Positions 31,413-63,603 of a DNA stretch of 64,000 nt are shown one piece after another. The stretch covers positions 695 to 64,694 of the forward strand of contig CAIJMQ010000121.1 of the NCBI GenBank assembly GCA_903821905.1, in the 5' to 3' direction. Source of the stretch: an uncultured bacterium. GTDB taxonomy: Bacteria; CAIJMQ01. The translations under genes and the position numbers were made by a program. The notes under the pieces were generated by a model, which was not told where the DNA came from, ran no database searches, and was given only the letters and a program-made list of their open reading frames with translations. The stretch's first letter is position 1. Each line of letters opens with the position of its first letter.

Positions 31413-31413
31413 A

Positions 31414-39151: not shown

Positions 39152-39226
39152 TGGTTATACCCCTCTGTTTATTTTTTTCCTTTTTATTAAATTTTTTATA
39201 ATTATTTATATATTTATAACAGCAAA

Positions 39227-40861: not shown

Positions 40862-40864
40862 TCT

Positions 40865-42928: not shown

Positions 42929-43650
42929 TCTTTTATACGTTGGGACTCGCCCCCACTCTTCAATTCGTATTTACCAGAATCTGATCTGGAGATTATAACT
43001 TTATTTTCATCAATACTCAATATCTTCCAACCTTCAACTTCATCTCCTGCGTTTGCAAAATAGGTCTTTTTTGTACTATCGTTTTGCAACATTGCTTGAA
43101 ACCCTTTCTCTATAGGCATAATACCTGTTAATTTGAAAGGCATTATTACAATCGAAGGTATCAATCGATATTGCTTCACTTCGTCACTAAGTATAACAAC
43201 ATCCCGAGTAATAGACACCACTGTAAAATTCTCCACCTTGTCGCCGACTTTAGCTTTATAAGTATTGCCTGTTTGAGAATTTCCAAAAGTAGCGGTAAGA
43301 ATACCTTCGGCATCAGAAACTACTCCAGTACATCCCAAATTCATCTGAGATGTAGCCGACCCTGATTTTTTAACATCCGTTGGAAAAAACATGTTTTTAT
43401 CAATTAATGGCTGGTATTGTGAAAAATCTTTCTTAATTAAGTAGGTACCAAAGTTCGGTTCATAAGGAGGAGGGGGATTAAGAGTTGTCCCTCCAGTTGG
43501 TTGTATTTTTATTTTGAAATCCTCAATTGCCTTGTTTCTATCTACCCCAGAAAATAAACGGACTGCTGTAATTATCAATATAACTAAAAGGAGACCAAGA
43601 ACTAATTTTTCATAATTTTCTTTAATCCACACTAATAGTTTATTAGACAT
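42925..43650 (-). CDS. Bitopic membrane protein with two PilP / GspC-HR-like beta domains
   Basis: 241 aa. N-terminal TM (LVLGLLLVILIITAV). Two similar segments, TYKAKVGDKVENFTVVSITRDVVILSDEVKQYRL and TYFANAGDEVEGWKILSIDENKVIISRSDSGKYEL, fit the PilP/GspC homology-region pattern (..vGd.v.gw.v.sI....v.l....g....l). Confidence 0.5.
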   Translation of the reverse strand: MSNKLLVWIKENYEKLVLGLLLVILIITAVRLFSGVDRNKAIEDFKIKIQPTGGTTLNPPPPYEPNFGTYLIKKDFSQYQPLIDKNMFFPTDVKKSGSATSQMNLGCTGVVSDAEGILTATFGNSQTGNTYKAKVGDKVENFTVVSITRDVVILSDEVKQYRLIPSIVIMPFKLTGIMPIEKGFQAMLQNDSTKKTYFANAGDEVEGWKILSIDENKVIISRSDSGKYELKSGGESQRIKE

Positions 43651-43695
43651 TATTTTTTCAACTTGGTCTTTATTCTTAATAAAGGAAATAATATA

Positions 43696-44526
43696 TCACG
43701 ATTTCCCCCATCTGATTACGGATAGTCTTAATTGTACCTGTATCTTTTTTCCCCCTACAGATCCAGTTTTAACAGTTCCCAATGTTTCCGATCTGGTTTG
43801 ATCTTGAAAACGTCCTGCCCGAGGATCCATTGAAGCATCAGATATTCCTGTCATTTCTTTGCCTTCTATTATCGACGAGAGGGAAAAGTTCTTTACTATA
43901 AAAAATCCCTGGTCGGTATTTTCCAATGTAAATAAAAGTTTTGCTAAAGAAAGGATATCGCATTTCACACTCAGGATTAATGGTATCTCCTCATACATGT
44001 CTGTTTTCGTTATTTCCCCCAACCCTATACTGTCTATTGAACTCACTCCTGTATCAATTAACAAATTAACAATCATTTCAGTAAGGTATAGATTTTTTAT
44101 TAGTTGGGGTGCTCCTTGGTCGGTCGGTAGACTATTATCTAATCCTAAACCTTCAGTAGTAATTTCGATTCCTTTTTCTTTAGCTTTAGTTCCAATCCGC
44201 TCTTTTGTATTTTTTAATTCTTCCATAAAAAACAGAGATAAATTAACACCTTCCGGAATAGATGACTCTTTTGCCACAGGTAAACTCTCTCTAATTTTTT
44301 TATATTTATCTGCTAATACAATGTTGTCTTTTTCCATGGCACTAATCAATTCGTCGGAAGGAAGATTGCCTGCGGAATAAATTTGTTGAAGCGTACTCTC
44401 TTTTTCTTTAAGCATTTTATTAGTTTCATTGTTATTTTTTAATAATAAATATCCAAACAAAGAAAATAATAAGACTATAATAAGCAAGGTTATTATATAT
44501 GGCAATCCTTGTTTTAACATAGTCAC
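43696..44526 (-). CDS. PilO / GspM-like bitopic inner-membrane protein (module B)
   Basis: 276 aa. TM (LPYIITLLIIVLLFSLFGYLLL), a coiled-coil and a periplasmic domain. Its position after the PilMN fusion (ATGA overlap) supports the call. Confidence 0.55.
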   Translation of the reverse strand: MTMLKQGLPYIITLLIIVLLFSLFGYLLLKNNNETNKMLKEKESTLQQIYSAGNLPSDELISAMEKDNIVLADKYKKIRESLPVAKESSIPEGVNLSLFFMEELKNTKERIGTKAKEKGIEITTEGLGLDNSLPTDQGAPQLIKNLYLTEMIVNLLIDTGVSSIDSIGLGEITKTDMYEEIPLILSVKCDILSLAKLLFTLENTDQGFFIVKNFSLSSIIEGKEMTGISDASMDPRAGRFQDQTRSETLGTVKTGSVGGKKIQVQLRLSVIRWGKS

Positions 44527-46394
44527 TTCCCAATAACTATTTCAAGTGTAAATTTAACTTCTTCTTCTTTATCAACTGTTGCTTCTGCTGCTGATGTAGT
44601 CCCTCTGGCTCCTTTGACCGGTCCCCTAATTCCTTCTGTTGTAGCAGATCGACCTCCCGAGCTATCTGATGTAGATACTACAGAAGTTATTCCTACAGTT
44701 TTAAATAAAGGTGAAGTCTTTAACTTGTTAATATACTCATCAACCGTAGGATAAGAAGCAGTAGTCCCACTTAAAGATATTTTATCTGTTAATAATATGT
44801 TTCCATTTCCTTCTGGTAAGGGAGTTCCCGTATTCGGATTTTTTCCTCCAGTTGGCATAGTTCTGGGGTCAATAGGAACACCCTTAGAATTTCCTTCGGT
44901 ATTCATTGCGGGCACTCTTCTATCTTCGCTTGGATTTGTTCTAACAGCACCTCTTACTCCTGTTGTTTCTCTCCCTGTTTCCAATGCTCCTGTAGTTATC
45001 TCCGTTATAGATATACTTGAAGGAGTAAGTTTAGAAATCTCAAGAAGTATTTTGGACAACTGCGATTTTTGTTTTAGAATCACTTCAATATTTTGAAATT
45101 TACTGATAATCTGTTGTCTCTCATTCTTCAATTCTTCAGCCTTAGACACATAGGGCTTGTAATTTTTAAGAATCGGCTCAATCATATCAATTTTTTCTTT
45201 TGTTAAATTATAGCTTCTTGTACCCAAAACCAATATGATCCAACCTATCAAAAATATCATAACAAAAGAAGAAATAAAGTATAACCTTTTATCCGCCAAC
45301 TGTCTCTTGCTTAGTAGTTTCGGAGGCAATAGATTTATCTCAATTGAAAAATGCTTCAATGCCCTAAGAGCTAATCCAGTAACAACACAAAAATTACTTG
45401 CACTATCGGTTAGCTTAGCAGGGTCATAAGCTATTTTATTAAACGGGTTAATTTCTTTCACTTCAACTCTGAACGAATTTTGCAGGAGGTTTATAAGATT
45501 AACATCTTGGGGAAATTCACCCGATATGTATATATATTGAAAGTGAGTTACTTTTTCTACTTGAGATAAATAGTAATTTGTAGTCCTCTTAATTTCTGCT
45601 ACTAAATCTTCCCAAACAGAAAGAATTAAAGGAGAAATATCTTTCACGCCTGCTTCCGACGTTACGTCGGAGCGGGCATACTTTTCAAGAATTTCTTCAG
45701 CTTTTTCAATATCCACTCCTTTTGACTCGGCGATTTTCTTAAGTATATTCTTCTTACCTATAGGCACTGCTCTGGTAAATGCCATTTCTCCCTTATTTTC
45801 AATAGAGACGTCAGTATAACTAAACCCGAAATTCACTAAAATTCCAACTTTTTCCTTAGGTAACAAATCATTAAAAACAAGACAGTTATGCAAAGCAAGT
45901 GATGAAGTGTCTACAACGTCAGGAATTTTATTTATGGAATTCTGCAAAACTTTGAGCAAATCTTCCACAAAACTTTGTTTTATTGCTGCCATTAGTACTA
46001 TTACGGGGCCCGGGACTTTACTAACAGGAGAAACTACTTGATAGTCCCATATAACTTCATTTAAAGAGAAAGGTACCTGCTGTTGAACTTCAAAAGATAT
46101 TACTTGTTTTAATTTGGAATAGGATACCGGGGGAAGTTTCACTTTTCTTACAAAACTTATCTGCCCACCAACACCTAAAGAAATCTCATCTTTGGCAGAA
46201 GCCAATCCTTCAAAAATTTTAATTATATTAGCAGCTAATAATTTTTTATCGTCTTCTTTATTACCTAAAGGAAGTTTTATTGACCTTGCCCCAACCAAAA
46301 CCACGCCATTAGGGCCTTGGGCAAGTTTTGCTAAATTTATGCGGTCATCCCTGATTTCTATTCCTATACCTGATTTAGCTCTTCTTTTGGGCAT
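44523..46394 (-). CDS. PilM-PilN fusion (GspL-like) assembly protein with a low-complexity periplasmic extension (module B)
   Basis: 623 aa. N-terminal actin-like PilM pattern (GIGIEIRDDRINLAKL..., SFVRKVKLPP, VDTSSLAL). TM LYFISSFVMIFLIGWIILVL. PilN-like coiled-coil and core, interrupted by Pro/Thr/Gly-rich tracts. Confidence 0.7.
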   Translation of the reverse strand: MPKRRAKSGIGIEIRDDRINLAKLAQGPNGVVLVGARSIKLPLGNKEDDKKLLAANIIKIFEGLASAKDEISLGVGGQISFVRKVKLPPVSYSKLKQVISFEVQQQVPFSLNEVIWDYQVVSPVSKVPGPVIVLMAAIKQSFVEDLLKVLQNSINKIPDVVDTSSLALHNCLVFNDLLPKEKVGILVNFGFSYTDVSIENKGEMAFTRAVPIGKKNILKKIAESKGVDIEKAEEILEKYARSDVTSEAGVKDISPLILSVWEDLVAEIKRTTNYYLSQVEKVTHFQYIYISGEFPQDVNLINLLQNSFRVEVKEINPFNKIAYDPAKLTDSASNFCVVTGLALRALKHFSIEINLLPPKLLSKRQLADKRLYFISSFVMIFLIGWIILVLGTRSYNLTKEKIDMIEPILKNYKPYVSKAEELKNERQQIISKFQNIEVILKQKSQLSKILLEISKLTPSSISITEITTGALETGRETTGVRGAVRTNPSEDRRVPAMNTEGNSKGVPIDPRTMPTGGKNPNTGTPLPEGNGNILLTDKISLSGTTASYPTVDEYINKLKTSPLFKTVGITSVVSTSDSSGGRSATTEGIRGPVKGARGTTSAAEATVDKEEEVKFTLEIVIGK

Positions 46395-46567: not shown

Positions 46568-49500
46568 TTATTCCCCAATCTCCCTAAAATACTTATAAAG
46601 ATTATCAGGAGAAACCGTCGAATACGGCGGATGATTCGGGTCAACTACAGTAAATATTTTTCGTGCAGGTGTCTGGTCAAAATTATTATGATTATTTTGT
46701 TCTCTAGCTTGCACTTCAAATATATAAGTTCCTTCTTTTAACCCTAAATAACTTGCACTATTATCTAACGGAACCCAACCAGTCCAACCGGAGTCTTTTC
46801 CTATTAAGTAATGTCTATATTCATAAGGCGGCATTCCACCTACTCCTGTAAATCTAAAAGTAACATCTCCGGATGTCTGATCTGACGGGCCATAAGTAAT
46901 AATAGTATCAGGAACTTCGGGAGATACATACCAGACCCAGATGACATCAGCGGAAACTCTTCGAGGAACAAGACTCTGGACACATGAACTTCCATTCTGG
47001 TCTTTTGCCTTCACCAAGAATCTGTACCATGTTCCCACTGTTAAATTTTCAAAAGAAGTGGAAGTTGCATCAGTCGTCCCAGGTACCAAACTCCAATCAC
47101 CAATATCATTGGAAGGGTCATAATAAGAGGGATCATAATCAGTTGTCCACACAGTTCCAGTCCAATGTTCCAACTTACTTTTGTATCTGCATTCAGTCGT
47201 ATCAATCTTAGTCCATCTAAACGAAGCATATGTGTGCGGGAACGGGTTTGACGGATATTGAGTAAGTATGACTTGTGGTACATCCGCATTAATTTGTATC
47301 GAATAGCCGTAAGTATTACTTGCCACCTGGAATTCTACAGGATGACCTGTTACTATTTCCACAGACTCTGTATCGGCATGCGAATAGCCCATATTAGGTG
47401 TAATCCATACTGTTGTTGTATCATTTAAATCCTTTTTAACTTCCAAATTTCCTTCATCTTTTATTCTAAACTGTATTAGATTTGTATCGCCGTTATCAAA
47501 TTTTACATTTGCATATAACCACACAAAAGTATTTCTTGTTTCGTCTGTCTCTTTTATCACGTTTCCTACATGATAAGGAAGAATAGTTTCATCATATAAT
47601 CGGATTTCACTACAGTCCTGCCATTGGCTCCAAACACGCGGTTCAGGAGACGTAGCAAGGCTGTATCTATACTGTGCACTGCCTTTATTAATTGATATCC
47701 CCGAACAGTCTGTGTCTTTCTCGTCAAATTCGATGGTAGCAGGATTGTGTCCTTTGTGTGATGGGTCACCGACTTCAGCGAGATTCTCATTATTCCTATC
47801 TTTCACCTTTACTCTTACAGTTACGTCTTTGGTAGGTATCCATGGTGAATCGGTTTGGACAATTTCCGTATTCCCACCATCCCATTCTACACACACTTCA
47901 TCCCAATAATAGTTGTCGGTCTGTAGATAATTGGCAATAGAATCTCCGTTATTAATTTTTATAGGGCCTTTTGTTGTTGCAGGCACATTTACCTGTTTCC
48001 CCGATTCCTGTGTTCCTGTTCCGCATACTAAATATGCGCCGGGCGGGGTTCTATCAAGTGTGAATGTTATAGGGCTGTAGCTATTCAAAGCATCCGATAT
48101 AAGTTCCGGATAAGTATCTTCGACATCATTCTTATTTTTTACCGTTAGCTGAACATAGAAAGTGTGGTCGCCTGTACTAGTATCAGTAACATCATCAAAG
48201 ATTTGTGATAGGTCAGGACAGTCATCAAGATCAAATGGCGGTGAATAATGGTCAGCGCTATAAATACTTGTTGAATCGTTTTCTTTGGTAGTGCCTGATA
48301 CCTTATCCCAATCGGTATATATCCATTGCCCCGGCATAATATCAATTCCCGGTTGAATTACTTGTATGTCAGAATCCCAAACTGGTACAAAATGATTGCC
48401 ACCCTCTTTATTAATAGTATAAATCTGAATTTGATATGACTTTAACGGCAAACCACTGCCGTCCACATCGAGATATTTCCATCTAAACTGCGGTGTAGCA
48501 TCGTGGACAGGTGCCATAGCAGGGAAAGGTTCCCAACCGTCATCTTGGTCAACAGGAATCTTGTCTTTATCAACCACATACAATTCTCTTATTTGTAAAC
48601 CCCAAGGATGTAGGCCTTGACCTAAATCAGGGCCTCTGAAAGCTGAGACATCTTTAGGAGAAGAGACACCACCTACTCTTGCCAGTTCTTTATATACTCC
48701 GGCACCGCCAGACACCACTGCTTCCAAACCGGAAGCAAGTTCAATTATAGTAGTATCTGCACTGGGGTAACTCACACTTTTTAATTCATAAACCGGTTCT
48801 ATATCAGTAGTGAAACTTCCAAAACTTACCTTTAAAGGACGATAAAGGTCGGTATCACTTGTACCAGTAGTTGGGTTTGCTAAAGTAATTTCAGTATCAC
48901 TTATCGCATAACTACCCAATACTGTGTATCCCGTATATCTATGCCCTTCTGGAGCTAATCTGACTATCTGGCTATCGCCGCTGTCAACTACCCAGCATTC
49001 GCCGGTTGATGGGTCCACCGATACTGAGGTAGGTGAAGAAAATCCGTAGATTTTAGTGTGCAGATTGCCTGAACCGCTGATATCATATCCATTAGTTATT
49101 TCTTTATCCAATCTTACTATGTATGAATCTCCGCCATCTTCGCCCTGACAGGCAACCCAGCAATCACCTGAAACAGGGTCAACAGCCACGGAAACGGGAT
49201 TATTAAAGCCTTTTATTATTTTGTGAGAACCAACATCATTGGTTATATCATATCCGGCTGTAGTTATATCTGCCTCGCCAATATTACCCTTTATCCAGAC
49301 AACAGTATCATCAGTATCAGTATTAGGGTCGTCATCAGCCACCCAACAATCACCGGAATTGGAATTAACAGATACTGATATGGGATTTAAAAATCCGTCT
49401 ATACGCGCAAGTTCTCTGCCTACGGGAATAGTAAATGATGGAGTGACAAAACTAGGCTGATTGAGAAAAATGTTATAGGCAAAAATGCTATTTGTATCGC

Positions 49501-52500
49501 CGTCATCCTGCTGCCATACCGCTACCGCATTATTTCCACTCATCGCTACTTGAGGAGAAGAAGCTTCACCATTATCCTGCTCGATAAGCTGACTATCATG
49601 CCAAGTTGCTCCGCCATCACTTGAGTAATTGAAATAAATACTATTTGCAGTGCCGTCATACTGCTTCCATACTGCTACTGCAGTATCACTGTTTATTGCT
49701 ATTTGAGGAGAAAAAGCCCAATCATTATCCATCTCAAGAAGCTGACTATCATGCCAAGTTGCTCCGCCATCACTTGAGTAATTGGAATAAATACTATAGA
49801 CAGGACCATCATACTGCTGCCATACTGCTACTGCAGTATCACTGTTTATTGCTATTTGAGGAGAAGAAGCACCACCATTACCCTGCTCAAGAAGCTGACT
49901 ATCACCCCAAGTTGCTCCGCCATCACTTGAGTAATTGGAATAAACACTACTACTTTGCTGCCATACTGCTACTGCATTATTTCCACTCATTGCTATTTGA
50001 GGAGAATCAGCTTCTTCAGAACCCATCTCGAGAAGTTGACTATCACTCCAGCTCGCTCCGCTATTAATAGAATAACTGGAAACAATATTACCTCCACCTA
50101 TGCCTGTTCCCTTCGTTTTGACTATGCGGCTATTTCCAGTATCCGCCACATAGATATAGCCCGTGGAAGAATCGTAAGAAATACCCTCGGGACCACTAAA
50201 CTGCCCAGCACCGCTACCTGCCGAGCCATAAGTAGTCCAGCCGGTGCCATCTATTTTGGTCTTAATTATGCAACTATTATCGATATCCGTCACATAGATA
50301 TATCCTGTGGAAGAATCGTAAGAAATACCAGTGGGCCAACTAAATCCTCCTAATATAGTCCAGCCGCTTCCGTCTATTTTGGTTTTGACTATAGAGCTAT
50401 TTCCCTCATCCGACACATAGATATATCCCGTGGAAGAATCGTAAGAAATACCATAGGGATAAGCAAATCCTCCTAATGTAGTCCAGCCGGTACCATCTAT
50501 TTTGGTCTTGATTATGCGACTATTATCGGTATCCGCCACATAGATATATCCCGTGGAAGAATCGTAAGAAATACCTCCTTCGATATAAGAAGTAAATCCT
50601 CCTAATGTAGTCCAGCCGGTACCGTCCATCTTTGTCTTGACTATGCGGTCATTGCCAGAATCCAGAACATAGATATATCCTGTGGAAGAATCGTAAGAAA
50701 TACCCTCGGGACCACTAAACTGTCCAGCACCGCTACCATATGAACCATAAGCAGTCCAGCCGGTGCCATCCATTTTGGTTTTGACTATGCGATGATTGAC
50801 GGTATCTGCTACATAGATATAACCCGTGGAAGAATCGTAAGAAATACCATAGGGATAATAAAATCCTCCTAAAGTCATCCATCCCTCAGATCCCTGCCAT
50901 ACTGCTGCCGCATTATTTCCACTCATCGCTACTTGAGGAGACAAAGCCGCATCATTACCCTGCCCAAGAAGTTGACTACCACCCCAATACCAGCTTGTTC
51001 CGCCATTAATAGAATAGTTGTAATAAGTACTACTATTCTGCTGCCATACTACTACTACTTTGTTCCCATCCATTGCTATGTCAAGAGATGGTATAGGTCC
51101 CAATGTTGTTGCTGTTTCCTCCGCATTCCCAAAAGTAATAAGATTATCTATCATAGAGTTGTACTGGGCTTTTATCCAGGCAGAGGAACGTGCTACATCG
51201 GAAATGCGGACTTCGTCTATTGTGCCGCTAAAATTTCGTTTAAAAGCGTTTTGAGGGTCTGCCCCTATCCAAAGGCCCGAAGCCGAGATAGGATTAGGGT
51301 TTAATGTTTGAACTGCAGTGCCAATATTTGTTCCGTCCTGATATAGTTTTAAATTAGTCCCATTCCAAGTTCCTACAATGTTATGCCAAGTAGTTCCCAG
51401 AGATGGTGTAACATCAACCTTATTAGAGAGAGTAGTATCTGCTATTTCGAAAAGTATTCTGTTCTGATGAGCACTCAAACTGTAACCATTCGTGTCGGTA
51501 GTGATATCTTCGGTTCCTACAATATACATGTTGCTATTAGTAGTTCCGGTATCGCTAACCCAAGCTTCTAAGGTTCCTGCCGTATTAAGATTTAAACTCG
51601 CATTACTTCCCATATTTACTTTTACAGTAGATGGTAGCTGTAGAAAACCGAACTTCACGTTGTATGGAGTTGCCCCTCGAGTCATGTATTCCACCCCGAT
51701 CTTAGAACTATATGACTGGTAGAAACATGAAAGGGTATCGTTGCTCGGAAAACTGGATTCAAATAACGCCCTAAAATAACCGTCTTTGTTTATATCTGCA
51801 GTCCAAGTTAATTCAGTATCCGCACTGAATGCCCAGTTCCCGTCGGTATAAGTCGGTGAAGTGCTGTCGACATACCACTGATAATATTGTGCTGCCGTCC
51901 CGGTTGGTGCACCAAGCACCAGACAGTATTTTTGGCCCGCAAGAACGCTCAACGGTGTAGTTAGAATGTGAGTCCTCCATGCAGCGCCTCCGCCAGGCGT
52001 AAAACTCGAAATTGTCCCTGTGTATAAAGCAGAACCTGTCGGTTTATTCTGCGCATCGGCGGCGTATATTTTTACTGTGATTGGTACATTGTTTGTACCC
52101 GCACCACGCTGAAGATAGAATTCTACCCGAAACAGGTTGTCATTAATCGTCGATATAAAGGATTGTGATTTCCAAGTAGTCGCCCCGTAAAAGGTTTCAT
52201 ATAAATCGCCACCAGATTCGTAAGATTGCATAGGTTGCCCACTAACACTCCAGTTTGTATCTGTCGGGTTGGTATCCCAAGTTCCATTCACGCATTTTTT
52301 GTAATAGATATGGACTGCAGTCGGTGCCCCTGCCCAAAAGCAGTACAGATTGTTTGTAGCGGGGTCCATGCTCAATACAGGCACCATCGCAGTAGCTGCA
52401 CTTGCCTGCACCGCCGCCTCAGTTCCCCACAATCCAGTACTGCCAATACGCTTGTTGTACATTATTCCTGTTGCTAAAGTATTGTTCAAATAGACGAGAT

Positions 52501-55500
52501 ATATATCATCACCGTTTGCCACTGCGGAATGACCATAACCAAGTTCTGCGTCTGCCATCGTCGTTTCTTCCGAACCCCAAGTAGAGCCGTTCCAGAGTTT
52601 ACCTTTACCAGGCTGGCCATCTCTGGAATAGATTGCATAAACTTTTCCACCTGTCAGAGGCAGGATTGAAACTCTCCAAGTAGTATCATTAGTTGCTGAA
52701 AGTGCGTAAGGAAAACCGCTTGCGGTGCTCCAAGTGCCGTTGTTATTCGCATTTTTGAATACTAATGGAAGGTATGTGGTGCTTGCCGCTGAAACAGAAC
52801 GATACATCCCTATCCAAGCGTACCCATTGCTGTCAATTGCAATCATAGGAGCAAGATAATTGTAATTTCCTGGATTGGTTATTACAAGTTGTTCCGCGGC
52901 GTTCCAAGTTATTGAACCGTCACTAACAGGCGTTCCCCTGCGATAATAGATATAATTCGTGCCCGTAGGATAAGTAAATCGAACGTAGTGAACATAGGTG
53001 CCGTCGAAACAGGCTGAACCGCTGTAACCGTAAGCAGCACCTCCATTAACCGCCCCAACACTCGTAAAACTGCTCCAAGTCGCTCCGTCTGCGCTTGTCC
53101 TATAGCCAAAGTTTGTTCCATCAACATACCAAACCCAATGTAGACCTGCAGCATAGAAAGTTTTACGCTGGTTGGGATACTGTGTTGCACTTGATATAGT
53201 GCTTGTCCCTATCACAGTGCTTGCCTGCACTACTACAGGATCTTCAAGAAAATTTTGTGCTTTGGAAATTTCTCCAGCTGTTTCTATCGGCTTATTAGCT
53301 GATGTTTTAGTACCGTTATTTGCATATGTTGTAGAGTCTTTAATGGAAGATACATTTGGGTCATCTTTCATATGGGTAACTAACTTGAAATTAGAATCCC
53401 AGACATTGGCTGCATCCTGCGCATCTGTAGCATCAGGATTGCCGTAATACATATATATAATAGTAGAATCCGTTGAACTTACTTTGGGAATTTTTACCCA
53501 AATTGTTGAGGTATCGGTCTCGTCCCATTTCTCTATTTCATATTTCAACGGGGTGTCTTCAGAACTAACAAACCTTATGTCTTGACCGGAATCTTGAGTA
53601 TTGCTGTAATCTATACGGGTTGGATTAAGTTCTACACATAATGGGAAATCGGTTAAGTCTGTATCTATTTTGGTGTGGTCTATAAAAATAGGTTTTCTGT
53701 ATTGCCATTTGCCATGTGTCCCTTCAAGAATCTGACTATCATGCCAAGTTGCTCCGCCATCGGTTGAGTAGTTGGAATAGATGCTATTTGCAGCGCCGTC
53801 ACTTTGTTGCCAAACCGCTACTGCAGTACTGCCACTCATTGCTATTTGAGGAGAATCGGCTTCTTCAGAACCTAGCTCGAGAAGTTGACTATCACCCCAG
53901 CTTGTTCCGCCATCAATAGAATAGTTGGAATAGATGCTATTTGCAGCGCCGTCATTCTGCTGCCATACTGATACTGCATTAGTACCACTTATTGCTATTT
54001 GAGGAGAAGAAGCCTCTCCGTTACCCCGCTCAAGAAGCCAGGGGATAGGAAACCATTGGGATTGCGCACCTAAAGATTCTTTCAAAGGAGAAGCTATCAC
54101 AATCTGGGTATCTGATTCAATACCTCCTATCATGTAGACATCAGTAAGATTATTACCAAAACTTATATTTATACCGGTATCCAGTTCTGATGTATCGGTA
54201 AGGGTTATGGTAGCAGTTCCTATGGAATGATATTGGTTTATGGTAGCGTTGATAGTTTTATATCCATCTTTGGATAGTTTAACCACTGCCGGAGCGTAAC
54301 TTGGAGTTGTTTCATCATAATGCAGCGTTTCATCATAAACTGCTAAGGAATATACACCCTGCTTGGTGTCTAGCTGACCTAAATCTGTCCAATTATTAGG
54401 ACCGTTATAACGATATACATGCCCGGATGGAGATGTTCCAGCATGCAGTTTGCCATTATAAACTGCTAAGGACGTAACAGTATCATTGGAACCTAACTGT
54501 CCTAAATCTGACCATATCCCATGCTTTTCACTATCAAGACCATCATAACGATATACATGTCCGGACGGAGATGTCCCGCCATACAGTTTGCCATTATAAA
54601 CTATTAAGGAATCTACAGATGTATTGGCACCTAAGGGAGGAATTAAGGGGCCTAAATGACCTAAATCTGTCCACTTATAACCGCCACCGCCACTAGTAAT
54701 AGGACCATCGTAACGATATACATGTCCAGACGGATATGTTCCAGCATACAGTTTCTCACCATAAACCCCGTCATCATAAACTGCCAATGAAAACACATGA
54801 TTACCTAATCCGCCTACAGGTTCCCACGTAGTCCCACCATCATAACGATATACACCCCCGGATGGATATGTTCCAGCATATAGTTGGTCATTATAAACTG
54901 CTAAGGAAAGTACATCCTCATCGGAACCTAATCTACCCACATCTGTCCAGCTGTGCCCCCCATCGTAACGATATACTCTGGCCCCATTCGAACTATCTGT
55001 TCCGGCATATAGTTTGCCATCATAAACTACTAATGAATATACCGATGACCCTCCCAACCATGTATCTTTCCAAGTGCTACCATCGTAATAAAATACGCTC
55101 GCCTGATCAGCTGTTCCAACATACAGTTTGTTATTATAAACTGCTAAGCAATATGCACTACTACCGGGATTACCGAATGGAGTGAACTTACCTAAATCTG
55201 TCCAGGTACTACCCCCATCGTAACGATATACCTTGGCCCTATTCGAACCAGACGATGCATAAGATCCACCATACAGTTTGAGATTTGGTTCGGGAGTAGC
55301 TACCCATGCCTCTCCATTTGAAGAATTGACAGAGATAGACTTAGGAGAATTAAAAACTTTTACTTTCGAAACACCCGCATAACGAATATTTTCTTCATCG
55401 CCAAAAGTGACGAGATGGGCAGAAGGAGTATCGCACTCTGAATAATAAGATGCTTTAATCCAAGCAGAAGAACGGGCTATATTGGAAATGCGGACTTCAT

Positions 55501-57277
55501 CAATCGTGCCTTCCATGCTTGAACCTATTCTAAGTGTTTTGTTTGCATCTCTTATGTATGCTGATATTGTTCCTGTGCCGTTTGGGGTTCCGTTTAAATA
55601 ATGGGTTACTTCTGTTCCCGACATCCTAACTGCTAAATATTGCCAACCAAAAGAAGGGCTACTCGTTGCCGGAACGGAATCAGATACAACACCACTGCCA
55701 CCGGAGAATGACGGAATACCGTCGTCCAAATAGTAATCATATGGCGCAGGTATGTCATTCTTGGTCTTACCAACTAAACCTCTGTATCCTACAAAATCTG
55801 TAACTTTAACCCATAACGAAATTGTAATATTTCCGGTAATAGCTAAACTGGAGGAATCAGGCACAATGATAGAATCTCCGGATGTAAACTCATCGGCTCC
55901 GTCTATTTGCGCTGCAGTATCTTTGCTAATGGAACCCAAAGGCGTGCCATCGTTACTGTTAAAGGTTGAATCATATCGAGTATCAGAAGAATCTTCCTCC
56001 AAATGCTGAACCATCATATAATTAGAATCCCACACATTTTCCGTATCTTGTGCATCTTGAGCACTAGGATTGCCGTAATACATATATATAATAGTAGTAT
56101 CTGCTGAGCTTATCTCCGGCACTTTTACCCAGACTACAGAATTGCTACCTTTATCCCATTTTTCTATTTCGTATTTTAATGGATTGCCTTCGGAATCAGT
56201 GAATCTTATATCTGCACCAGCATCTTTTGTATTATTGTAATCGATGCGGGAAGAATCAAGTTTCACACACAGCGGGAAATTCTCTAAATTTGCATCTATC
56301 TTGGTATAGTCTATGCTGAGTTTTTTCCTGAAATTCCATTTTTCATATTTAACTACTGAACCATCTCCTGTATTAGCAGCCCAAGCTGTATCGTATTCAG
56401 TATTGGTTCTATCAGAAATAGAATTGGCAGATACATCTTGAGGAGAAACGGATGTTTTGTCTCTGAACCTGTCTATATGAATGAGTGCGGTATCTTGACC
56501 AATAATAGAATGGTCGGCTGGCAAGCCAGAGATAGTGGTAAGAATATTGGGATTGGTTGTTTTATCTATATCTTTTATTTCTAAAACATAGGTGTTGGTT
56601 TTAGCTCGGTTATCGCTCTTAAAATCTATTTTCATTCCCGGCAGAATGCCGGTATCTTCGCTGTAAAGGTTGAACATGGTATCGCCGGCATCAAAACTAC
56701 TGTAATAATAAGGCGTTACTATTGCAGTATCGGGAGGTTCTATCCTGCCCTCACTGGCGAGTTGGGTAACTGACGAATCTTCATCTGATTTATCTGTTAT
56801 CCATACTCTCTCATTGCTTTGATTGGCAGAAACGGCAACCGGTTCGGCAAATCCCCCTGCTCTCACTAGCTCCATATAGATAGGAGAATCTGTTACATCC
56901 TCGGTTTTGTTATTAAAATTATAGAATTCTACAATCCAAGAATCCTGACCATCACCATCAAATTTTATGCTCTGAATCTCATAAACATTTTTTCTATCAT
57001 CTCCGAAACTTAATTTTAAACCCGGATAGAATAAAGCTGTGGGATTAGTGTTAACTCTTATTTCACTATCTGTTAAACTTACGTCTTCTTTAGGGTCTCC
57101 TGCTACACTTATAACAGTCGGTGCGTGGCCTTCTTTGTAAAGACGGCTTACTTGCTCATTACCTGTATCTGCTACCCACGCGTCTGAAAATGCGTATGAA
57201 GGGAAAAGAAGCGCAAGGATAATAACAAGTATTAAATTTTCCCTGAAGAATTTGTTTTTTATTAATCTGTTATTCAT
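46568..57277 (-). CDS. Giant (3569 aa) secreted mosaic protein with DUF2341, LamG, Kelch-like propeller, Asp-box (BNR) blades, a six-blade NHL propeller and Ig/FN3-like C-terminal domains
   Basis: Sec signal peptide (LILVIILALLFPSYAFS/DA). Two DUF2341-like segments (IDYTKIDANLENFPLCVKL...IRFTDSEGNPLKYEIEKWD...VWVKVPEISS..TIIYMYYGNP, and a second copy). Two LamG-like segments ending TIDEVRISN(/D)(I/V)ARSSAWIKA.Y. Seven YRYDGG..W.D.G...SLAVY..KLYAGT units. At least 9 S.DGG.(S/T)W Asp-boxes. Six GISYDSSTGYIYV.D..N.RI(V/I)KTK.DGTGWT units. Confidence 0.85.
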   Translation of the reverse strand: MNNRLIKNKFFRENLILVIILALLFPSYAFSDAWVADTGNEQVSRLYKEGHAPTVISVAGDPKEDVSLTDSEIRVNTNPTALFYPGLKLSFGDDRKNVYEIQSIKFDGDGQDSWIVEFYNFNNKTEDVTDSPIYMELVRAGGFAEPVAVSANQSNERVWITDKSDEDSSVTQLASEGRIEPPDTAIVTPYYYSSFDAGDTMFNLYSEDTGILPGMKIDFKSDNRAKTNTYVLEIKDIDKTTNPNILTTISGLPADHSIIGQDTALIHIDRFRDKTSVSPQDVSANSISDRTNTEYDTAWAANTGDGSVVKYEKWNFRKKLSIDYTKIDANLENFPLCVKLDSSRIDYNNTKDAGADIRFTDSEGNPLKYEIEKWDKGSNSVVWVKVPEISSADTTIIYMYYGNPSAQDAQDTENVWDSNYMMVQHLEEDSSDTRYDSTFNSNDGTPLGSISKDTAAQIDGADEFTSGDSIIVPDSSSLAITGNITISLWVKVTDFVGYRGLVGKTKNDIPAPYDYYLDDGIPSFSGGSGVVSDSVPATSSPSFGWQYLAVRMSGTEVTHYLNGTPNGTGTISAYIRDANKTLRIGSSMEGTIDEVRISNIARSSAWIKASYYSECDTPSAHLVTFGDEENIRYAGVSKVKVFNSPKSISVNSSNGEAWVATPEPNLKLYGGSYASSGSNRAKVYRYDGGSTWTDLGKFTPFGNPGSSAYCLAVYNNKLYVGTADQASVFYYDGSTWKDTWLGGSSVYSLVVYDGKLYAGTDSSNGARVYRYDGGHSWTDVGRLGSDEDVLSLAVYNDQLYAGTYPSGGVYRYDGGTTWEPVGGLGNHVFSLAVYDDGVYGEKLYAGTYPSGHVYRYDGPITSGGGGYKWTDLGHLGPLIPPLGANTSVDSLIVYNGKLYGGTSPSGHVYRYDGLDSEKHGIWSDLGQLGSNDTVTSLAVYNGKLHAGTSPSGHVYRYNGPNNWTDLGQLDTKQGVYSLAVYDETLHYDETTPSYAPAVVKLSKDGYKTINATINQYHSIGTATITLTDTSELDTGINISFGNNLTDVYMIGGIESDTQIVIASPLKESLGAQSQWFPIPWLLERGNGEASSPQIAISGTNAVSVWQQNDGAANSIYSNYSIDGGTSWGDSQLLELGSEEADSPQIAMSGSTAVAVWQQSDGAANSIYSNYSTDGGATWHDSQILEGTHGKWQYRKPIFIDHTKIDTDLTDFPLCVELNPTRIDYSNTQDSGQDIRFVSSEDTPLKYEIEKWDETDTSTIWVKIPKVSSTDSTIIYMYYGNPDATDAQDAANVWDSNFKLVTHMKDDPNVSSIKDSTTYANNGTKTSANKPIETAGEISKAQNFLEDPVVVQASTVIGTSTISSATQYPNQRKTFYAAGLHWVWYVDGTNFGYRTSADGATWSSFTSVGAVNGGAAYGYSGSACFDGTYVHYVRFTYPTGTNYIYYRRGTPVSDGSITWNAAEQLVITNPGNYNYLAPMIAIDSNGYAWIGMYRSVSAASTTYLPLVFKNANNNGTWSTASGFPYALSATNDTTWRVSILPLTGGKVYAIYSRDGQPGKGKLWNGSTWGSEETTMADAELGYGHSAVANGDDIYLVYLNNTLATGIMYNKRIGSTGLWGTEAAVQASAATAMVPVLSMDPATNNLYCFWAGAPTAVHIYYKKCVNGTWDTNPTDTNWSVSGQPMQSYESGGDLYETFYGATTWKSQSFISTINDNLFRVEFYLQRGAGTNNVPITVKIYAADAQNKPTGSALYTGTISSFTPGGGAAWRTHILTTPLSVLAGQKYCLVLGAPTGTAAQYYQWYVDSTSPTYTDGNWAFSADTELTWTADINKDGYFRALFESSFPSNDTLSCFYQSYSSKIGVEYMTRGATPYNVKFGFLQLPSTVKVNMGSNASLNLNTAGTLEAWVSDTGTTNSNMYIVGTEDITTDTNGYSLSAHQNRILFEIADTTLSNKVDVTPSLGTTWHNIVGTWNGTNLKLYQDGTNIGTAVQTLNPNPISASGLWIGADPQNAFKRNFSGTIDEVRISDVARSSAWIKAQYNSMIDNLITFGNAEETATTLGPIPSLDIAMDGNKVVVVWQQNSSTYYNYSINGGTSWYWGGSQLLGQGNDAALSPQVAMSGNNAAAVWQGSEGWMTLGGFYYPYGISYDSSTGYIYVADTVNHRIVKTKMDGTGWTAYGSYGSGAGQFSGPEGISYDSSTGYIYVLDSGNDRIVKTKMDGTGWTTLGGFTSYIEGGISYDSSTGYIYVADTDNSRIIKTKIDGTGWTTLGGFAYPYGISYDSSTGYIYVSDEGNSSIVKTKIDGSGWTILGGFSWPTGISYDSSTGYIYVTDIDNSCIIKTKIDGTGWTTYGSAGSGAGQFSGPEGISYDSSTGYIYVADTGNSRIVKTKGTGIGGGNIVSSYSINSGASWSDSQLLEMGSEEADSPQIAMSGNNAVAVWQQSSSVYSNYSSDGGATWGDSQLLEQGNGGASSPQIAINSDTAVAVWQQYDGPVYSIYSNYSSDGGATWHDSQLLEMDNDWAFSPQIAINSDTAVAVWKQYDGTANSIYFNYSSDGGATWHDSQLIEQDNGEASSPQVAMSGNNAVAVWQQDDGDTNSIFAYNIFLNQPSFVTPSFTIPVGRELARIDGFLNPISVSVNSNSGDCWVADDDPNTDTDDTVVWIKGNIGEADITTAGYDITNDVGSHKIIKGFNNPVSVAVDPVSGDCWVACQGEDGGDSYIVRLDKEITNGYDISGSGNLHTKIYGFSSPTSVSVDPSTGECWVVDSGDSQIVRLAPEGHRYTGYTVLGSYAISDTEITLANPTTGTSDTDLYRPLKVSFGSFTTDIEPVYELKSVSYPSADTTIIELASGLEAVVSGGAGVYKELARVGGVSSPKDVSAFRGPDLGQGLHPWGLQIRELYVVDKDKIPVDQDDGWEPFPAMAPVHDATPQFRWKYLDVDGSGLPLKSYQIQIYTINKEGGNHFVPVWDSDIQVIQPGIDIMPGQWIYTDWDKVSGTTKENDSTSIYSADHYSPPFDLDDCPDLSQIFDDVTDTSTGDHTFYVQLTVKNKNDVEDTYPELISDALNSYSPITFTLDRTPPGAYLVCGTGTQESGKQVNVPATTKGPIKINNGDSIANYLQTDNYYWDEVCVEWDGGNTEIVQTDSPWIPTKDVTVRVKVKDRNNENLAEVGDPSHKGHNPATIEFDEKDTDCSGISINKGSAQYRYSLATSPEPRVWSQWQDCSEIRLYDETILPYHVGNVIKETDETRNTFVWLYANVKFDNGDTNLIQFRIKDEGNLEVKKDLNDTTTVWITPNMGYSHADTESVEIVTGHPVEFQVASNTYGYSIQINADVPQVILTQYPSNPFPHTYASFRWTKIDTTECRYKSKLEHWTGTVWTTDYDPSYYDPSNDIGDWSLVPGTTDATSTSFENLTVGTWYRFLVKAKDQNGSSCVQSLVPRRVSADVIWVWYVSPEVPDTIITYGPSDQTSGDVTFRFTGVGGMPPYEYRHYLIGKDSGWTGWVPLDNSASYLGLKEGTYIFEVQAREQNNHNNFDQTPARKIFTVVDPNHPPYSTVSPDNLYKYFREIGE
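49480..50095. repeat. Tandem coding repeats: five ~50-aa Asp-box (BNR) blade units
   Basis: Unit is SPQIA(M/I).(S/G)..AVAVW(Q/K)Q.DG...SIY.NYSSDGGATW.DSQL(L/I)E. Near-identical DNA blocks (ctgactatcatgccaagttgctccgccatcacttgagtaattg) recur at ~150-nt spacing. Related units are at about 50890-51060 and 53730-54050. Confidence 0.8.
50110..50870. repeat. Tandem coding repeats: six NHL-type blades (123-144 nt each) with very high nucleotide identity
   Basis: The 37-nt anchor catagatata(t/g/a)cc(c/t)gtggaagaatcgtaagaaatacc occurs at 50149, 50293, 50416, 50539, 50668 and 50812. The spacings are 144, 123, 123, 129 and 144 nt, all in frame. Confidence 0.9.
54330..55245. repeat. Seven Kelch-like beta-propeller blade units (protein-level repeat)
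   Basis: Repeated (K/R/G/H)VYRYDG...W.D.G.LG......SLAVY(N/D)..LYAGT at ~45-aa spacing. Family assignment (Kelch-like) is by pattern only. Confidence 0.6.
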
Positions 57278-60300: not shown

Positions 60301-61215
60301 CTCACCAGCATCACGAATACCATTAGGAATAATGGTATCCTTAAAATAAGGATCCCAAGCAACAAATTCATATGGGTCATCTACCCCCTCGCCTGGTTCA
60401 TCACATCCGGCATCTCCAATATATTCACCATGGTCGGGTCTACCATTACCGTTAAAATCCATTGTTGTAACATCCCAATCAGCGTCGTTGTCTATTCCGT
60501 CATATTCTAAAATAATACTGTCGGCATCGTCATCAATATTTGGTTGCCCTGCCTGTGGAAACGGTGGTGGTGTTACAATACCATCTAAACCATAACGACC
60601 ACGATTTGTACCATGTACCACGCCATCTGCTAAATCCTGAGGATTGCCTAAACCCCAACCTAATTGGGTGTTACCTGCATTGAAAAATCTTTCCAAACTT
60701 ATTTCAAATGGCTTCCATCCTTGAACAGCACCTCTGTTCCCTGCAGTATTTATATTTATTTTACTTGATTCATCGATTATTAGGACTGCATAACGACCAA
60801 CTGTATCGCTGCCGGTATCATCGGTAACATATATCCATTTGGACTCGTTACCACCAGTCCCATTATTTGTTACAGTTGTGTCATCTAAATTAACTTCCGA
60901 ACCGCCGAAAACTGAAATATTAGAAACAGGAGTCGTGTCATACCCCCAATTTTCGCTGTATGCATCATATCCTGTATCGCCTCCGTCTGATTTAAGGACT
61001 GCAATTGCGTGGTCTATTCCCGATTTTGCGATGTAGGATGCCTTCAAACTGTTTACGTAATTGAATGCGGCTTTTTCTTCCATCCGCATTGTATACATAA
61101 ATGAGACACCTATGGCTGAAAGAATAGCAATAATCGCAACAATAATAATAAGAGCCATACCGGATTTATTTTTAGAATCTGGAATAGTATCTTGAATTTT
61201 GAATTTATTTCTCAT
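57310..61215 (-). CDS. Giant (1301 aa) GspK/PilX-like minor pseudopilin with a ~1000-aa insertion including a lamin-tail-domain-like module and acidic calcium-binding-like loops (module B)
   Basis: N-terminus KNKSG/MALIIIVAIIAILSAIGVSF is a pilin-like helix without Glu+5, as in GspK. KININTAGNRG near the N-terminal part. C-terminus VININTADTVVLQALPGIDKDIADSIVAHR...SKVFTIISQGQAL is the GspK HhH end. The insert contains RINEIMVKP ... EYVELVNISDTDIEIGGWEL (LTD-like) and D-rich loops (DIDDDADS, DGIDNDADWD, DLDGDGVDD). ATGA overlap with the J-like gene upstream. Confidence 0.7.
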   Translation of the reverse strand: MRNKFKIQDTIPDSKNKSGMALIIIVAIIAILSAIGVSFMYTMRMEEKAAFNYVNSLKASYIAKSGIDHAIAVLKSDGGDTGYDAYSENWGYDTTPVSNISVFGGSEVNLDDTTVTNNGTGGNESKWIYVTDDTGSDTVGRYAVLIIDESSKININTAGNRGAVQGWKPFEISLERFFNAGNTQLGWGLGNPQDLADGVVHGTNRGRYGLDGIVTPPPFPQAGQPNIDDDADSIILEYDGIDNDADWDVTTMDFNGNGRPDHGEYIGDAGCDEPGEGVDDPYEFVAWDPYFKDTIIPNGIRDAGEANYDDPFIVVEEIADAGVALGDIDPYITVYSSDENTNDSGFLRMNINLVKDATALYTVMYDAWEGLIGSSPDYTYDYIKRLAAQCAVNTIDYADTDNVSTFLKITDETGAETPTIARGIEGIRINEIMVKPAYQWEAKDLFKNQNPLGTLPNQLGITNWYLDTPDTGIYSKMPGADITAKIHLERGGFYRVRVLSYDDCVYPSTDNSFGVYIYNNDDRNDTVLAEDNVGGHNMGGWLLEDLGVPKLLSNPEYGHPLVPGDYTVVLKTSPDLFDEEGTATDTDINRLTDGSKTGVNSWTPGEWVGDTIKIMDGTGVRQTHTITNNTSDTVEIDGNWSPTINIGCSYHIIKTGARLGYIQFSQQPDCEYVELVNISDTDIEIGGWELTTSGGFVGRIPNDTIIEAKDYMVLTVDRDDNLEFMLDPDVKLGARFGTGIDNIAFKNTWPGVDLDKHVRALQLSTSPVNIAENVLGDTIVLRGGIFEDSPIIPKQWEDSGIPTGVDNNTLTEVTKTWDVDQWKGATITANMTVNTTSGGAELRQITRQIISNTSNKITINTKWAWDGDLISISVPSNYYIFFPLKAVTLWKGPLADRKIVAQVNYRAKDINQVCYIQNIPGVDTITPVYGFIALEKNDPTAIYDLDGDGVDDFWHLNNADSEVPSIKGGTPGGENSIYNKALDVNMEIRNLPFATIGDIKEVSICDTTNEWSRLGYLSNSNNDYIDEIRALADKITVSAKRLEAENSTYYSGVGWDPEQPAGDTFLTPFYSISALGGSPGIWTWGINQRINPDTGIYTLYISGKVSRHSIDVSDTMLVTVTTGVEPSGETRVVSFSEDNIACFGQITIGGKIPSGSDGEFLQLEIAPPDTDVISLYFDAAILAPEYKTYGVININTADTVVLQALPGIDKDIADSIVAHRKNNSPFHTIGEILDVEGSSGHKAIDLNTFSKISNLITTKSKVFTIISQGQALRESDNGTVSHDHKTYEILGEKKYIVVMER

Positions 61216-61877
61216 TGTCTGCTCCCCGGTATATTTACAACAGTAATGAAAGTGTCATGTCTTATATCGTCTTTCTCCGGCTCATATTGCATAACAAGAG
61301 TAATTTTTACTGCTTTAGGTAAAGCATAAATTCCCGGGGAAGTTGATATTGTAGCTCTCTCGAACTTGGAGGTAGTTTTATCCCAATATTCAAATTTAAG
61401 GTCACTCACACTACCAATTAATGCATCACTATCTTGATTCCCGTGTCTGGTATTAAAATCAAAATCAGTTGAATTCGAAGTATAATGTCTCATAACAGTA
61501 TCCGCCTTATTATCACCTGCAGTACCATTCAACCAATACCCCACTTCACATAAATCGCCTTTTTCATTAGGGATAATAAAATAAAATTCATCTCCTATAC
61601 TATTTGTTCGGTCTCCACTAGCCACATTCCAAAGTTCGTAATGAGCTCCTATCCTTTCATCTACCATTGCTTGTTCTATTTCTCTTGACATCATATCAAG
61701 AGCAGCTCGTGCTTCTGAATAAATAAGCGCTTTGTTGGAGCCCCTTCTCTGAGAAAACAAACTGCCCTGAAACACCGAAAATACGGTTGAAGATATAACC
61801 GCCAAAATAGCAACAACAACCATTACCTCTATAAGAGTCAATCCCATTGCGGATTTAAAAATTTTTAATTTATTCAT
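61212..61877 (-). CDS. Minor pseudopilin, GspJ-like (module B)
   Basis: 221 aa. Prepilin motif MNKLKIFKSAMG/LTLIEVMVVVAILAV. Position immediately before the K-like gene, with 4-nt overlaps on both sides. Confidence 0.65.
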   Translation of the reverse strand: MNKLKIFKSAMGLTLIEVMVVVAILAVISSTVFSVFQGSLFSQRRGSNKALIYSEARAALDMMSREIEQAMVDERIGAHYELWNVASGDRTNSIGDEFYFIIPNEKGDLCEVGYWLNGTAGDNKADTVMRHYTSNSTDFDFNTRHGNQDSDALIGSVSDLKFEYWDKTTSKFERATISTSPGIYALPKAVKITLVMQYEPEKDDIRHDTFITVVNIPGSRQ

Positions 61878-62943: not shown

Positions 62944-62946
62944 AAT

Positions 62947-63591: not shown

Positions 63592-63603
63592 ATTTTCTCC
63601 TCC

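Follow-up and report, generated by a model that had tools for sequence, protein, structure and literature searches.

A 3,569-residue secreted protein encoded beside a truncated giant GspK-like pilin: a candidate tip adhesin of a type IV pilus-like filament in an Omnitrophota-like bacterium

The last ~10 residues of PilC/PilY1 are reported to give a PilK-family minor pilin its final beta-strand in trans, while the GspK proteins of type II secretion systems (T2SS) hold that strand in cis (Ellison et al., PNAS 2026, PMC13533445). The gene for MshQ, a large non-PilY1 protein, immediately follows mshDOP, the homologues of pilIJK, and MshQ is predicted to complete MshP in the same way with a C-terminal strand. 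The same authors proposed that most type IV filaments are licensed for assembly when PilK receives this beta-strand, whether in cis or in trans, and that tip subunits so far unrecognised could be found by modelling. A candidate for such a subunit is found in 64,000 nucleotides of DNA from an uncultured bacterium (GenBank assembly GCA_903821905.1, contig CAIJMQ010000121.1, positions 695 to 64,694), the whole of which is called the window here. The protein, named BIG, has 3,569 amino acids (aa) and is encoded at 46568..57277 on the minus strand. BIG is read here as the putative tip adhesin of a type IV pilus-like filament of the kind found in Omnitrophota and in the Planctomycetota-Verrucomicrobiota-Chlamydiota (PVC) bacteria, where it would complete a truncated giant GspK-like pilin as a functional analogue of PilC/PilY1 and MshQ. 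This reading is derived from sequence comparison, and its probability is put at roughly 0.55.

BIG resembles the PilC/PilY1 proteins of Neisseria, Pseudomonas, Acinetobacter, and Myxococcus in several respects. It is Sec-exported, its gene comes right after pilI/J/K-type minor pilin genes, and its C-terminal part is conserved and contains a propeller, with the rest of the protein variable. In addition, its extreme C-terminal peptide may complete a K-type sheet in trans, as proposed for PilC/PilY1. BIG differs in being two to three times larger and in having no vWA domain. The GspK-like protein proposed as its acceptor has 1301 aa and carries HHH/T2SSK and LTD (Lamin Tail Domain) domains. The N-terminus of BIG is conserved too, and its variability comes from nested whole-domain cassettes. 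The PilY1/PilC C-terminal propeller domain had no Pfam or NCBIfam match in BIG at E<=0.01. MshQ of the MSHA pilus of Vibrio cholerae (~1200 aa) is similar in DUF2341/LamG content and in that its gene likewise follows pilIJK-type genes. One match of BIG that carries DUF2341 and LamG_3 (P0034) is named MshQ by its source. However, BIG has no MshQ-specific NCBIfam/Pfam match (DUF6701), and the propeller cassettes and C-terminal stalk are specific to the BIG family. DUF6701 is presumably the C-terminal region of MshQ.

Three other systems can be compared. Large DUF2341 proteins were found in type IV pilus (T4P) loci of Methanococcus and hypothesised to be at the pilus tip (Makarova et al., 2016, PMC4858521). 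BIG is also a large DUF2341 protein within a T4P-like locus, but the archaeal pilins and machinery are unlike those of its locus, and neither a K-like partner nor a tail was part of the argument there. Very long Omnitrophota proteins encoded beside secretion or pilus genes have been read as serving attachment to prey or hosts (West-Roberts et al., 2023, bioRxiv; 2026, bioRxiv 10.64898/2026.06.07.730766). They share the phylum-level setting of BIG. However, they exceed 30,000 aa, have many transmembrane regions and SecA-like (DEAD) domains, and are found beside GspD/E/F-RcpC-type or Tad loci, whereas BIG has 3,569 aa, is soluble, has no SecA match, and is encoded inside a minor-pilin/PilMN operon. 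The machine of BIG groups with the PVC-type pili-like cluster of Akkermansia muciniphila (Amuc_1098-1102), with which it shares PilM-like and Amuc_1100-family proteins and a secretin with tetratricopeptide repeats (TPR). In Akkermansia the TPRs and secretin are fused in PilQ (Amuc_1098, 907 aa), while they are separate genes in the window.

The proposed mechanism is as follows. BIG would enter the periplasm via Sec. The giant GspK-like protein lacks the final beta-strand of its pilin-fold sheet, and the last ~10 residues of BIG (NLYKYFREIGE) would supply it. I/J-like minor pilins would recognise the pair of K-like protein and adhesin, and the filament would thus be primed. The filament would take the adhesin outward through the secretin, and the frame of BIG would keep it on the tip. 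Specificity could then be set by the cassettes through binding to glycan or surface ligands of prey, host, or substrate.

The evidence that carries this reading begins with the two C-termini. The giant GspK-like protein has its LTD insert at residues 668-719 and its HHH_3/T2SSK domain at 1191-1242. It ends in ...EKKYIVVMER, and together with its four orthologues, which measure 1,184 to 1,472+ aa and of which three are interrupted by a contig end, it gives the consensus ...SKVFTIISQGQAL...YEILGEKKY[IM]VV[MIV]ER. The window also encodes a canonical GspK in a second pilin cluster. This protein has its terminal strand in cis (...IAIVERNQSDVKVKFWKEN) and ends ...SNIFTITAQTKVGKIEKKVIAIVERNQSDVKVKFWKEN. 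Of the two K-type pilins that the genome thus possesses, only one has the terminal strand. The C-terminal regions of the two were aligned by hhalign with a probability of 88.5% (E 2.7e-6) up to FTIISQ/FTITAQ. BLASTP pairs EKKYIVVMER with EKKVIAIVER (weak, E 0.011), after which the canonical GspK continues with NQSDVKVKFWKEN for 13 residues more (...VKVKFWKEN).

BIG ends ...HPPYSxVSPxNLYKYFREIGE in 7/7 of the sequences that reach the C-terminus. Conservation is 0.845 in this tail vs 0.674 over the C-terminal 960 aa, and it is 0.58 in the preceding stretch. The pattern K[FYW][FYW][KR]E has three matches in the six frames of the 64-kb window: KYFRE, 3 residues before the BIG stop; KFWKE, 1 residue before the GspK stop; and KFFRE, in the BIG signal peptide. 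Taken together, the K-like end, the tail, and the motif would be most economically explained if BIG supplied the missing K-like strand.

The secreted nature of BIG points the same way. Its open reading frame (ORF) is continuous over 3569 codons with zero internal stops. By hydropathy, residues 10-36 are its one hydrophobic segment, and the predicted Sec-type cleavage is ...PSYAFS↓DAW. An earlier sequence-only reading had described both a continuous 10.7-kb ORF and a Sec signal peptide in place of a prepilin motif, and both descriptions held. Mature BIG is a soluble, acidic protein of 385.6 kDa (pI 4.45). The prepilin motif G↓F/M-T-L-x-E is missing from it and present in 6/6 pseudopilins of the operon, whose six pilin-type genes share G↓(F/M)(T/S)L(I/L/M)E. 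This difference between BIG and every neighbouring pilin is counted for a tip adhesin. A prepilin reading of the BIG N-terminus was considered and rejected, since the motif is not there. The signal peptide is unusually conserved, with 14/30 columns invariant across orthologues, including KNKF[FLI]R[ED]NL. Pfam and NCBIfam scans and hydropathy gave no anchoring domain (SLH, PEP-CTERM, LPXTG, type IX secretion C-terminal domain, or transmembrane segment). No catalytic family was matched when the whole protein and its segments were scanned for domains. The tandem repeats in the BIG DNA are 76-85% identical, so repeat collapse in the assembly is not an obvious risk.

The operon gives the third line of evidence (Table 1). 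Every gene from 63972 to 37943 is on the minus strand. The gap between the GspK-like gene, which closes with three consecutive stop codons, and the BIG gene is 32 nt, exactly as first read. In sequence scans, promoter-like and terminator-like sites were about as frequent as chance would give, and neither end of the BIG gene has a terminator-like site on the minus strand. The gene order and its proteins are kept at 43-69% identity in four other loci (L003, L005, L006, and the locus of P0145), and in each of these the BIG orthologue lies between the GspK-like gene and PilM-PilN. Two more loci (L001 and L002) display only the K-like side of the BIG orthologue. In these loci, orthologues of BIG are linked to pilin genes. 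A local copy of Pfam gave no match for the 276-aa ORF itself, and precomputed PF28028 Amuc_1100 matches are recorded for its orthologues (43-54% identical). The secretin function is seemingly divided among three genes at 37943-42928 (minus strand). The sequence-only reading had proposed that BIG is the cargo or partner of the filament. Because the gene order is kept in the orthologue loci and the near-invariant tail matches the K-like deficit, BIG is read here as a partner, and a released cargo is less likely.

Table 1. Positions in the window of the segments of BIG (residue numbers refer to BIG), of its operon, and of the comparator GspK.
Feature	Position	Strand	Basis or remark
Signal peptide, residues 1-30 (MNNRLIKNKFFRENLILVIILALLFPSYAFS↓D)	57188..57277	-	Sec type, not prepilin
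N-terminal module, residues 31-312	56342..57187	-	NHL-like blade segments alternating with two small beta domains
DUF2341 copy a, residues 313-490, frame	55808..56341	-	Pfam, self-BLAST, orthologues, AlphaFold2 (AF2)
LamG/ConA-like lectin copy a, residues 491-630, frame	55388..55807	-	Pfam, orthologues, AF2, Foldseek
Frame blade, first half, residues 631-664 (...FNSPKSISVNSSNGEAWVA)	55286..55387	-	Orthologue alignment
Cassette of seven Kelch-like (VYRYDG) units, residues 665-995	54293..55285	-	Motif count, orthologue BLAST
Frame blade, second half, and small beta domain sd3, residues 996-1078	54044..54292	-	Orthologue alignment
BNR/Asp-box units 1-2, residues 1079-1190	53708..54043	-	Self-BLAST, custom hidden Markov model (HMM)
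DUF2341 copy b, residues 1191-1362	53192..53707	-	Pfam, self-BLAST
528-aa insert, residues 1363-1890	51608..53191	-	Only in window protein; splits DUF2341b from LamGb
LamG copy b, residues 1891-2055	51113..51607	-	Pfam, self-BLAST
BNR unit 3 and N-terminal half of unit 4, residues 2056-2133	50879..51112	-	Custom HMM
NHL x6 propeller within BNR unit 4, residues 2134-2397	50087..50878	-	Pfam, motif count, orthologues
C-terminal half of BNR unit 4 and units 5-7.5, residues 2398-2610	49448..50086	-	Pfam segment, custom HMM
Conserved C-terminal NHL-like blades (GF.NP.SVSV....G.CWV) and sd4, residues 2611-2905	48563..49447	-	Segment scan, orthologues
Conserved C-terminal beta-sandwich array (Y_Y_Y x2, fn3-like), residues 2906-3546	46640..48562	-	Segment scan, orthologues
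Near-invariant C-terminal tail, residues 3547-3569 (...HPPYSTVSPDNLYKYFREIGE)	46571..46639	-	Orthologue conservation
Five prepilin-type genes	61212..63972	-	Pfam, prepilin motif
G-like pilins (T2SSG)	63604-63972, 62947-63591	-	Pfam
N_methyl minor pilins, two	62422-62943, 61874-62425	-	Pfam
J-like minor pilin	61212-61877	-	Pfam, N_methyl
Giant GspK-like minor pilin, 1301 aa	57310..61215	-	LTD insert, HHH_3/T2SSK domain
Assembly genes downstream of BIG	37943..46394	-	Pfam, orthologue loci
PilM-PilN fusion, 623 aa	44523-46394	-	Domain scan
276-aa ORF, Amuc_1100-family orthologue	43696-44526	-	Precomputed annotation of orthologues
241-aa ORF	42925-43650	-	
TPR protein, 687 aa	40865-42928	-	Domain scan
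TPR+STN protein, 544 aa	39227-40861	-	Domain scan
Secretin (Secretin_N+Secretin), 402 aa	37943-39151	-	Domain scan
Canonical GspK, 352 aa, comparator outside the BIG locus	29764..30822	-	Second, T2SS-type pseudopilin cluster

The strongest rival follows from that alternative. BIG could be a T2SS-like cargo, pushed out by a pseudopilus piston and then released or deposited on the surface as a free or cell-surface glycan-binding protein. The pilins of the operon are T2SSG/J/K-like by Pfam, and beta-propeller platforms are found in many T2SS substrates (PMC13533445), which share no sequence signature. Large Omnitrophota proteins have repeatedly been reported beside T2SS-like loci and read as secreted effectors, and the canonical T2SS cluster of the window adjoins a likely substrate, a C25 peptidase. 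However, PilM-PilN, the Amuc_1100-like protein, and the TPR-secretin indicate a T4P-like machine, not one of the GspL/M type, and the K-like protein is without the cis strand that T2SS GspK proteins retain. A near-invariant extreme C-terminal tail would be unexpected for a released cargo, and the domain scans found no catalytic domain. A released cargo is therefore considered unlikely.

The architecture of BIG was explored through its orthologues. Homology searches were made with the first 660 aa of BIG, with its C-terminal 951 aa, and with its final 150 aa, and this third query added just one fragment. P0144 among the matches is the window's own protein. Five full-length orthologues were found: P0145 (2,448 aa), P0146 (2,175 aa), P0147 (3,370 aa), P0148 (2,088 aa), and L003:9962-16081 (2,039 aa). 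Further relatives are fragments, plus a 797-aa version on the short contig L001. L003 is labelled in its record as a metagenome-assembled genome of Candidatus Omnitrophota, one fragment as Candidatus Omnitrophica, and one as Planctomycetota. From these record titles, the host of the BIG family appears to be Omnitrophota-like.

A frame is present in all full-length orthologues at ~40-70% identity by segment BLAST, lowest in LamGa. It comprises residues 1-30, 31-312, DUF2341a (313-490), LamGa (491-630), the blade 631-664, 996-1078, 2611-2905, and 2906-3569. Its N-terminal module (31-312) is 52-70% identical in all orthologues and is paralogous to residues 2714-2879, and its beta-sandwich array (2906-3546) has matches in orthologues only. 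All segments of BIG outside the frame vary between orthologues. The lineage-specific cassettes in the frame loops include Kelch-like, 8-unit BNR, and NHL propellers and extra DUF2341-LamG pairs. The Kelch-like array (665-995) is found only in the window protein and P0147. It sits inside the blade hairpin ...GEVWVADTGDSCVVKL..., in place of 3-5 residues of L003 and P0145. The BNR units (~51 aa, counted with a custom HMM) number eight in P0146, where they are contiguous, and 7.5 in P0145 and the window protein. The six NHL units lie inside one BNR unit at the same within-unit position in the window protein and P0145. The window junctions of this array are SPQVAMSGNNAAAVWQGSEGW, then NHL x6, then IVSSYSINSGASW.... 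The DUF2341b-LamGb pair of the window protein is placed between BNR units 2 and 3, and the 528-aa insert contains Asp-box-like repeats and a weak DUF4082-like region.

As the orthologue alignments indicate, BIG is a conserved frame carrying cassettes nested up to three levels. The length differences among orthologues (2,039-3,370 aa) result from cassettes nested in the constant frame. The conserved C-terminal third, with its propeller, and the hypervariable middle across orthologues of 2,039-3,569 aa are counted for the tip-adhesin reading.

The domain content inferred at first from the letters was largely recovered. DUF2341 (PF10102) scores 119.4 bits over two stretches of BIG (gathering cut-off 23.4) and 90-142 bits in the orthologues. 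Laminin_G_3 (PF13385) scores 109.9 bits, also over two stretches (cut-off 27.6), and the motif TIDEVRIS occurs twice, at 591 and 2019. NHL (PF01436) scores 131 bits (cut-off 20), and the array consists of six GISYDSSTGYIYV units at 2144-2365. The GF.NP.SV.V....G.CWV units, described as a further propeller-type array, are the conserved NHL-like C-terminal blades, which reach 28.1 bits for NHL when 2611-2905 is scanned alone. The C-terminal 664 residues scanned alone give Y_Y_Y at 36.4 bits. For the Asp-box blades, repeat units are present, and BNR_2 (PF13088) stays below its cut-off of 31.4 on the whole protein (28.9 bits) and exceeds it on segment 2401-2610 alone (34.4 bits). The array called Kelch-like does have seven VYRYDG-type units (683-954). 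It falls below every Kelch Pfam cut-off, with Kelch_FKB95 at 20.3 bits vs 70, and it reaches 35.8 bits for DUF6242 (cut-off 29). On these motif counts it is a seven-unit propeller-type repeat whose Kelch identity is undemonstrated by Pfam models.

Residues 31-664 were modelled with AF2 from a 30-sequence alignment. DUF2341-LamG alone was resolved, with a predicted local distance difference test (pLDDT) score of 85-97, while the N-terminal module reached only 30-78. A Foldseek search of the PDB with the DUF2341-LamG model matched ConA-like domains (E 1e-9 to 1e-7). The nearest solved folds are clostridial neurotoxin Hc, a trans-sialidase lectin domain, and AbnA domain 4, all of which are receptor-binding or carbohydrate-binding ConA-like domains. 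The predicted folds are thus counted for a tip adhesin. AF2 of the joined blade segments ("mini-frame") reached a pLDDT of 39 with an alignment of 4 sequences, too low to bear on whether the N- and C-terminal blades make up one propeller. Searching solved structures by sequence was unhelpful for the 528-aa insert, the C-terminal 690 aa, and the N-terminal 660 aa of BIG, as well as for the 276-aa Amuc_1100-like ORF and the GspK C-terminus.

BIG had been described as built from a duplicated DUF2341-LamG-propeller-BNR supermodule, with a DNA identity of about 70% by eye. The identity is correct, as 56030-56330 and 53400-53700 are 71.5% identical (203/284) and the entire DUF2341 pair has 70% DNA identity. 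Tiled self-BLAST pairs DUF2341 311-487 with 1188-1362 (51% aa identity, E 1e-54), LamG 524-698 with 1943-2139 (30%, E 4e-13, a weak paralogy), and N-terminal residues 32-151 with 2760-2879 (35%, E 2e-12), and BNR-type units recur at three places. Of the supermodule, only DUF2341 and, weakly, LamG are therefore paralogous. The supermodule as a whole is not duplicated, because the 528-aa insert (1363-1890) sets DUF2341b and LamGb apart in the second copy and the propellers that follow the two DUF2341-LamG copies differ in kind and order. A recent whole-supermodule duplication was rejected from self-BLAST, orthologue segments, and the BNR-unit HMM. DUF2341b of the window is 51-55% identical to the "a" copies vs 36-44% to the second DUF2341 of other orthologues, and LamGb is closest to the second LamG of other orthologues (41-42%). 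An intragenic duplication or conversion confined to the DUF2341 part appears to have taken place, and it would be the source of the DNA-level similarity first noticed. Going by these comparisons, nested cassette insertion into a shared frame replaces the duplicated supermodule.

The DUF2341-LamG pair is a widespread extracellular module. The earlier statement that DUF2341+LamG proteins often occur near pilin-like or ExbB-like genes is only weakly borne out. MshQ and ExbB are found among the source names of the matches, and two papers place such proteins there. However, 0/3 generic DUF2341-LamG proteins sampled on long contigs have pilin neighbours, and one of the three lies in a phage. This protein of 1,129 aa (L011:8001-11390) has two DUF2341-LamG pairs and adjoins terminase, portal, and capsid genes. 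Phages thus seem to use the module, possibly as a receptor-binding protein. Because the pair also occurs without pilins, including beside phage genes, it signals binding and not pilus association as such.

This bears on a second rival. BIG could be a cell-surface or S-layer-like adhesin that is independent of the filament and is co-located and co-transcribed with it only since both serve attachment. Generic DUF2341-LamG proteins do occur in many unrelated contexts, including phage, the NHL-like blades of BIG resemble those in SLH-domain surface proteins, and the downstream linkage is broken in L007. Nevertheless, BIG lies strictly between the K-like gene and PilM-PilN wherever the locus is long enough, at 43-69% identity. 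BIG also has no anchoring domain, and the 32-nt gap has no terminator-like site on the strand of the gene. An independent adhesin is considered improbable. A structural part of the machine in the periplasm or outer membrane (a gate, stator, or alignment partner of the giant K-like protein) that is not displayed outside is very improbable, for although the size of BIG is perhaps incompatible with secretin passage, both termini are strongly conserved, and DUF2341 is also fused to MotA/ExbB-type proteins, the hypervariable cassettes are typical of exposed binding proteins and not of machine parts, and BIG has lectin-type folds and no membrane segment.

Several observations weigh against BIG as a tip adhesin. 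No Pfam PilY1/PilC domain, vWA, or DUF6701 match was found in it, and a secretin channel may be too narrow for a 386-kDa protein with propellers within propellers. The K-like and GspK ends align over only 10 residues (BLASTP E 0.011), and hhalign ends 29 residues short of the GspK end. Given this short alignment and early stop, the K-like sheet may instead be complete, in an alternative register. The tail motif was noticed post hoc. The N-terminal module and signal peptide are conserved as strongly as the C-terminus, which lies outside the account given by the model. The 64-kb window does not include the genes for the extension ATPase and the platform, and in L007 mobile and toxin-antitoxin genes are found downstream of the orthologue P0148 instead of PilM-PilN.

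The window is a natural paired case, with a canonical GspK that holds its strand in cis and a giant K-like protein that lacks it and is followed by a 386-kDa secreted protein with an invariant tail resembling that strand. If BIG is confirmed as a tip adhesin, strand addition would be a mechanism of Omnitrophota/PVC bacteria too, and BIG would be by far the largest tip adhesin known. The question would then be raised of how so bulky a protein crosses the secretin. The variable cassettes would be a handle on what these uncultured, possibly epibiotic or predatory cells attach to. A wider claim can be put forward tentatively, as one that is doubtful at present. BIG could be the first member of an unrecognised family of tip adhesins of 2,000-3,600 aa of the PVC/Omnitrophota pilus, with a C-terminal strand locked on a truncated giant GspK-like pilin, a propeller-within-propeller frame, and exchangeable cassettes that set prey or host specificity in ultra-small, possibly predatory bacteria. 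Further extensions are that the N- and C-terminal NHL-like blades may close as one split propeller, and that KFFRE in the signal peptide may mimic the KYFRE tail and so regulate docking. The nested insertion in BIG is also a clean example of the growth of giant bacterial surface proteins.

Other observations were made in the orthologue loci. Small genes lie between the K-like gene and the BIG orthologue at L002:4463-5264, L003:9083-9682, and L005:3700-5422. These encode a DUF2204 nucleotidyltransferase, Rv0078B, a 23S_rRNA_IVP (Avd-like) four-helix protein, and an IS200-type Y1 transposase. In the P0145 locus, an Avd-like match falls on the J-like gene. No reverse transcriptase was seen in the relatives, so a diversity-generating retroelement is not indicated, although no dedicated exclusion was made. 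L007:6930-16556 contains an IS200-like gene, two nucleotidyltransferase/HEPN toxin-antitoxin pairs, and another gene of >2,258 aa that runs off the locus. The L001 orthologue (L001:4075-6468) stops at 797 aa within a ConA-like domain that runs on in P0147. The probable cause is a frameshift, a truncation, or an artefact of the contig end.

The second pilin cluster of the window (27772-32768, minus strand) encodes GspG, three N_methyl pilins, the 352-aa GspK, a GspL_C protein, and GspM. Directly after it, at 22995-27418 on the same strand, are genes for a Propeptide_C25 protein and a 1,226-aa Peptidase_C25 (gingipain-like) protein, the latter a plausible T2SS substrate. The two pilin clusters are separated by housekeeping genes at 32771-37956, also on the minus strand, which encode a 5'-3' exonuclease, CoaE, Rho, RF1, and PrmC.

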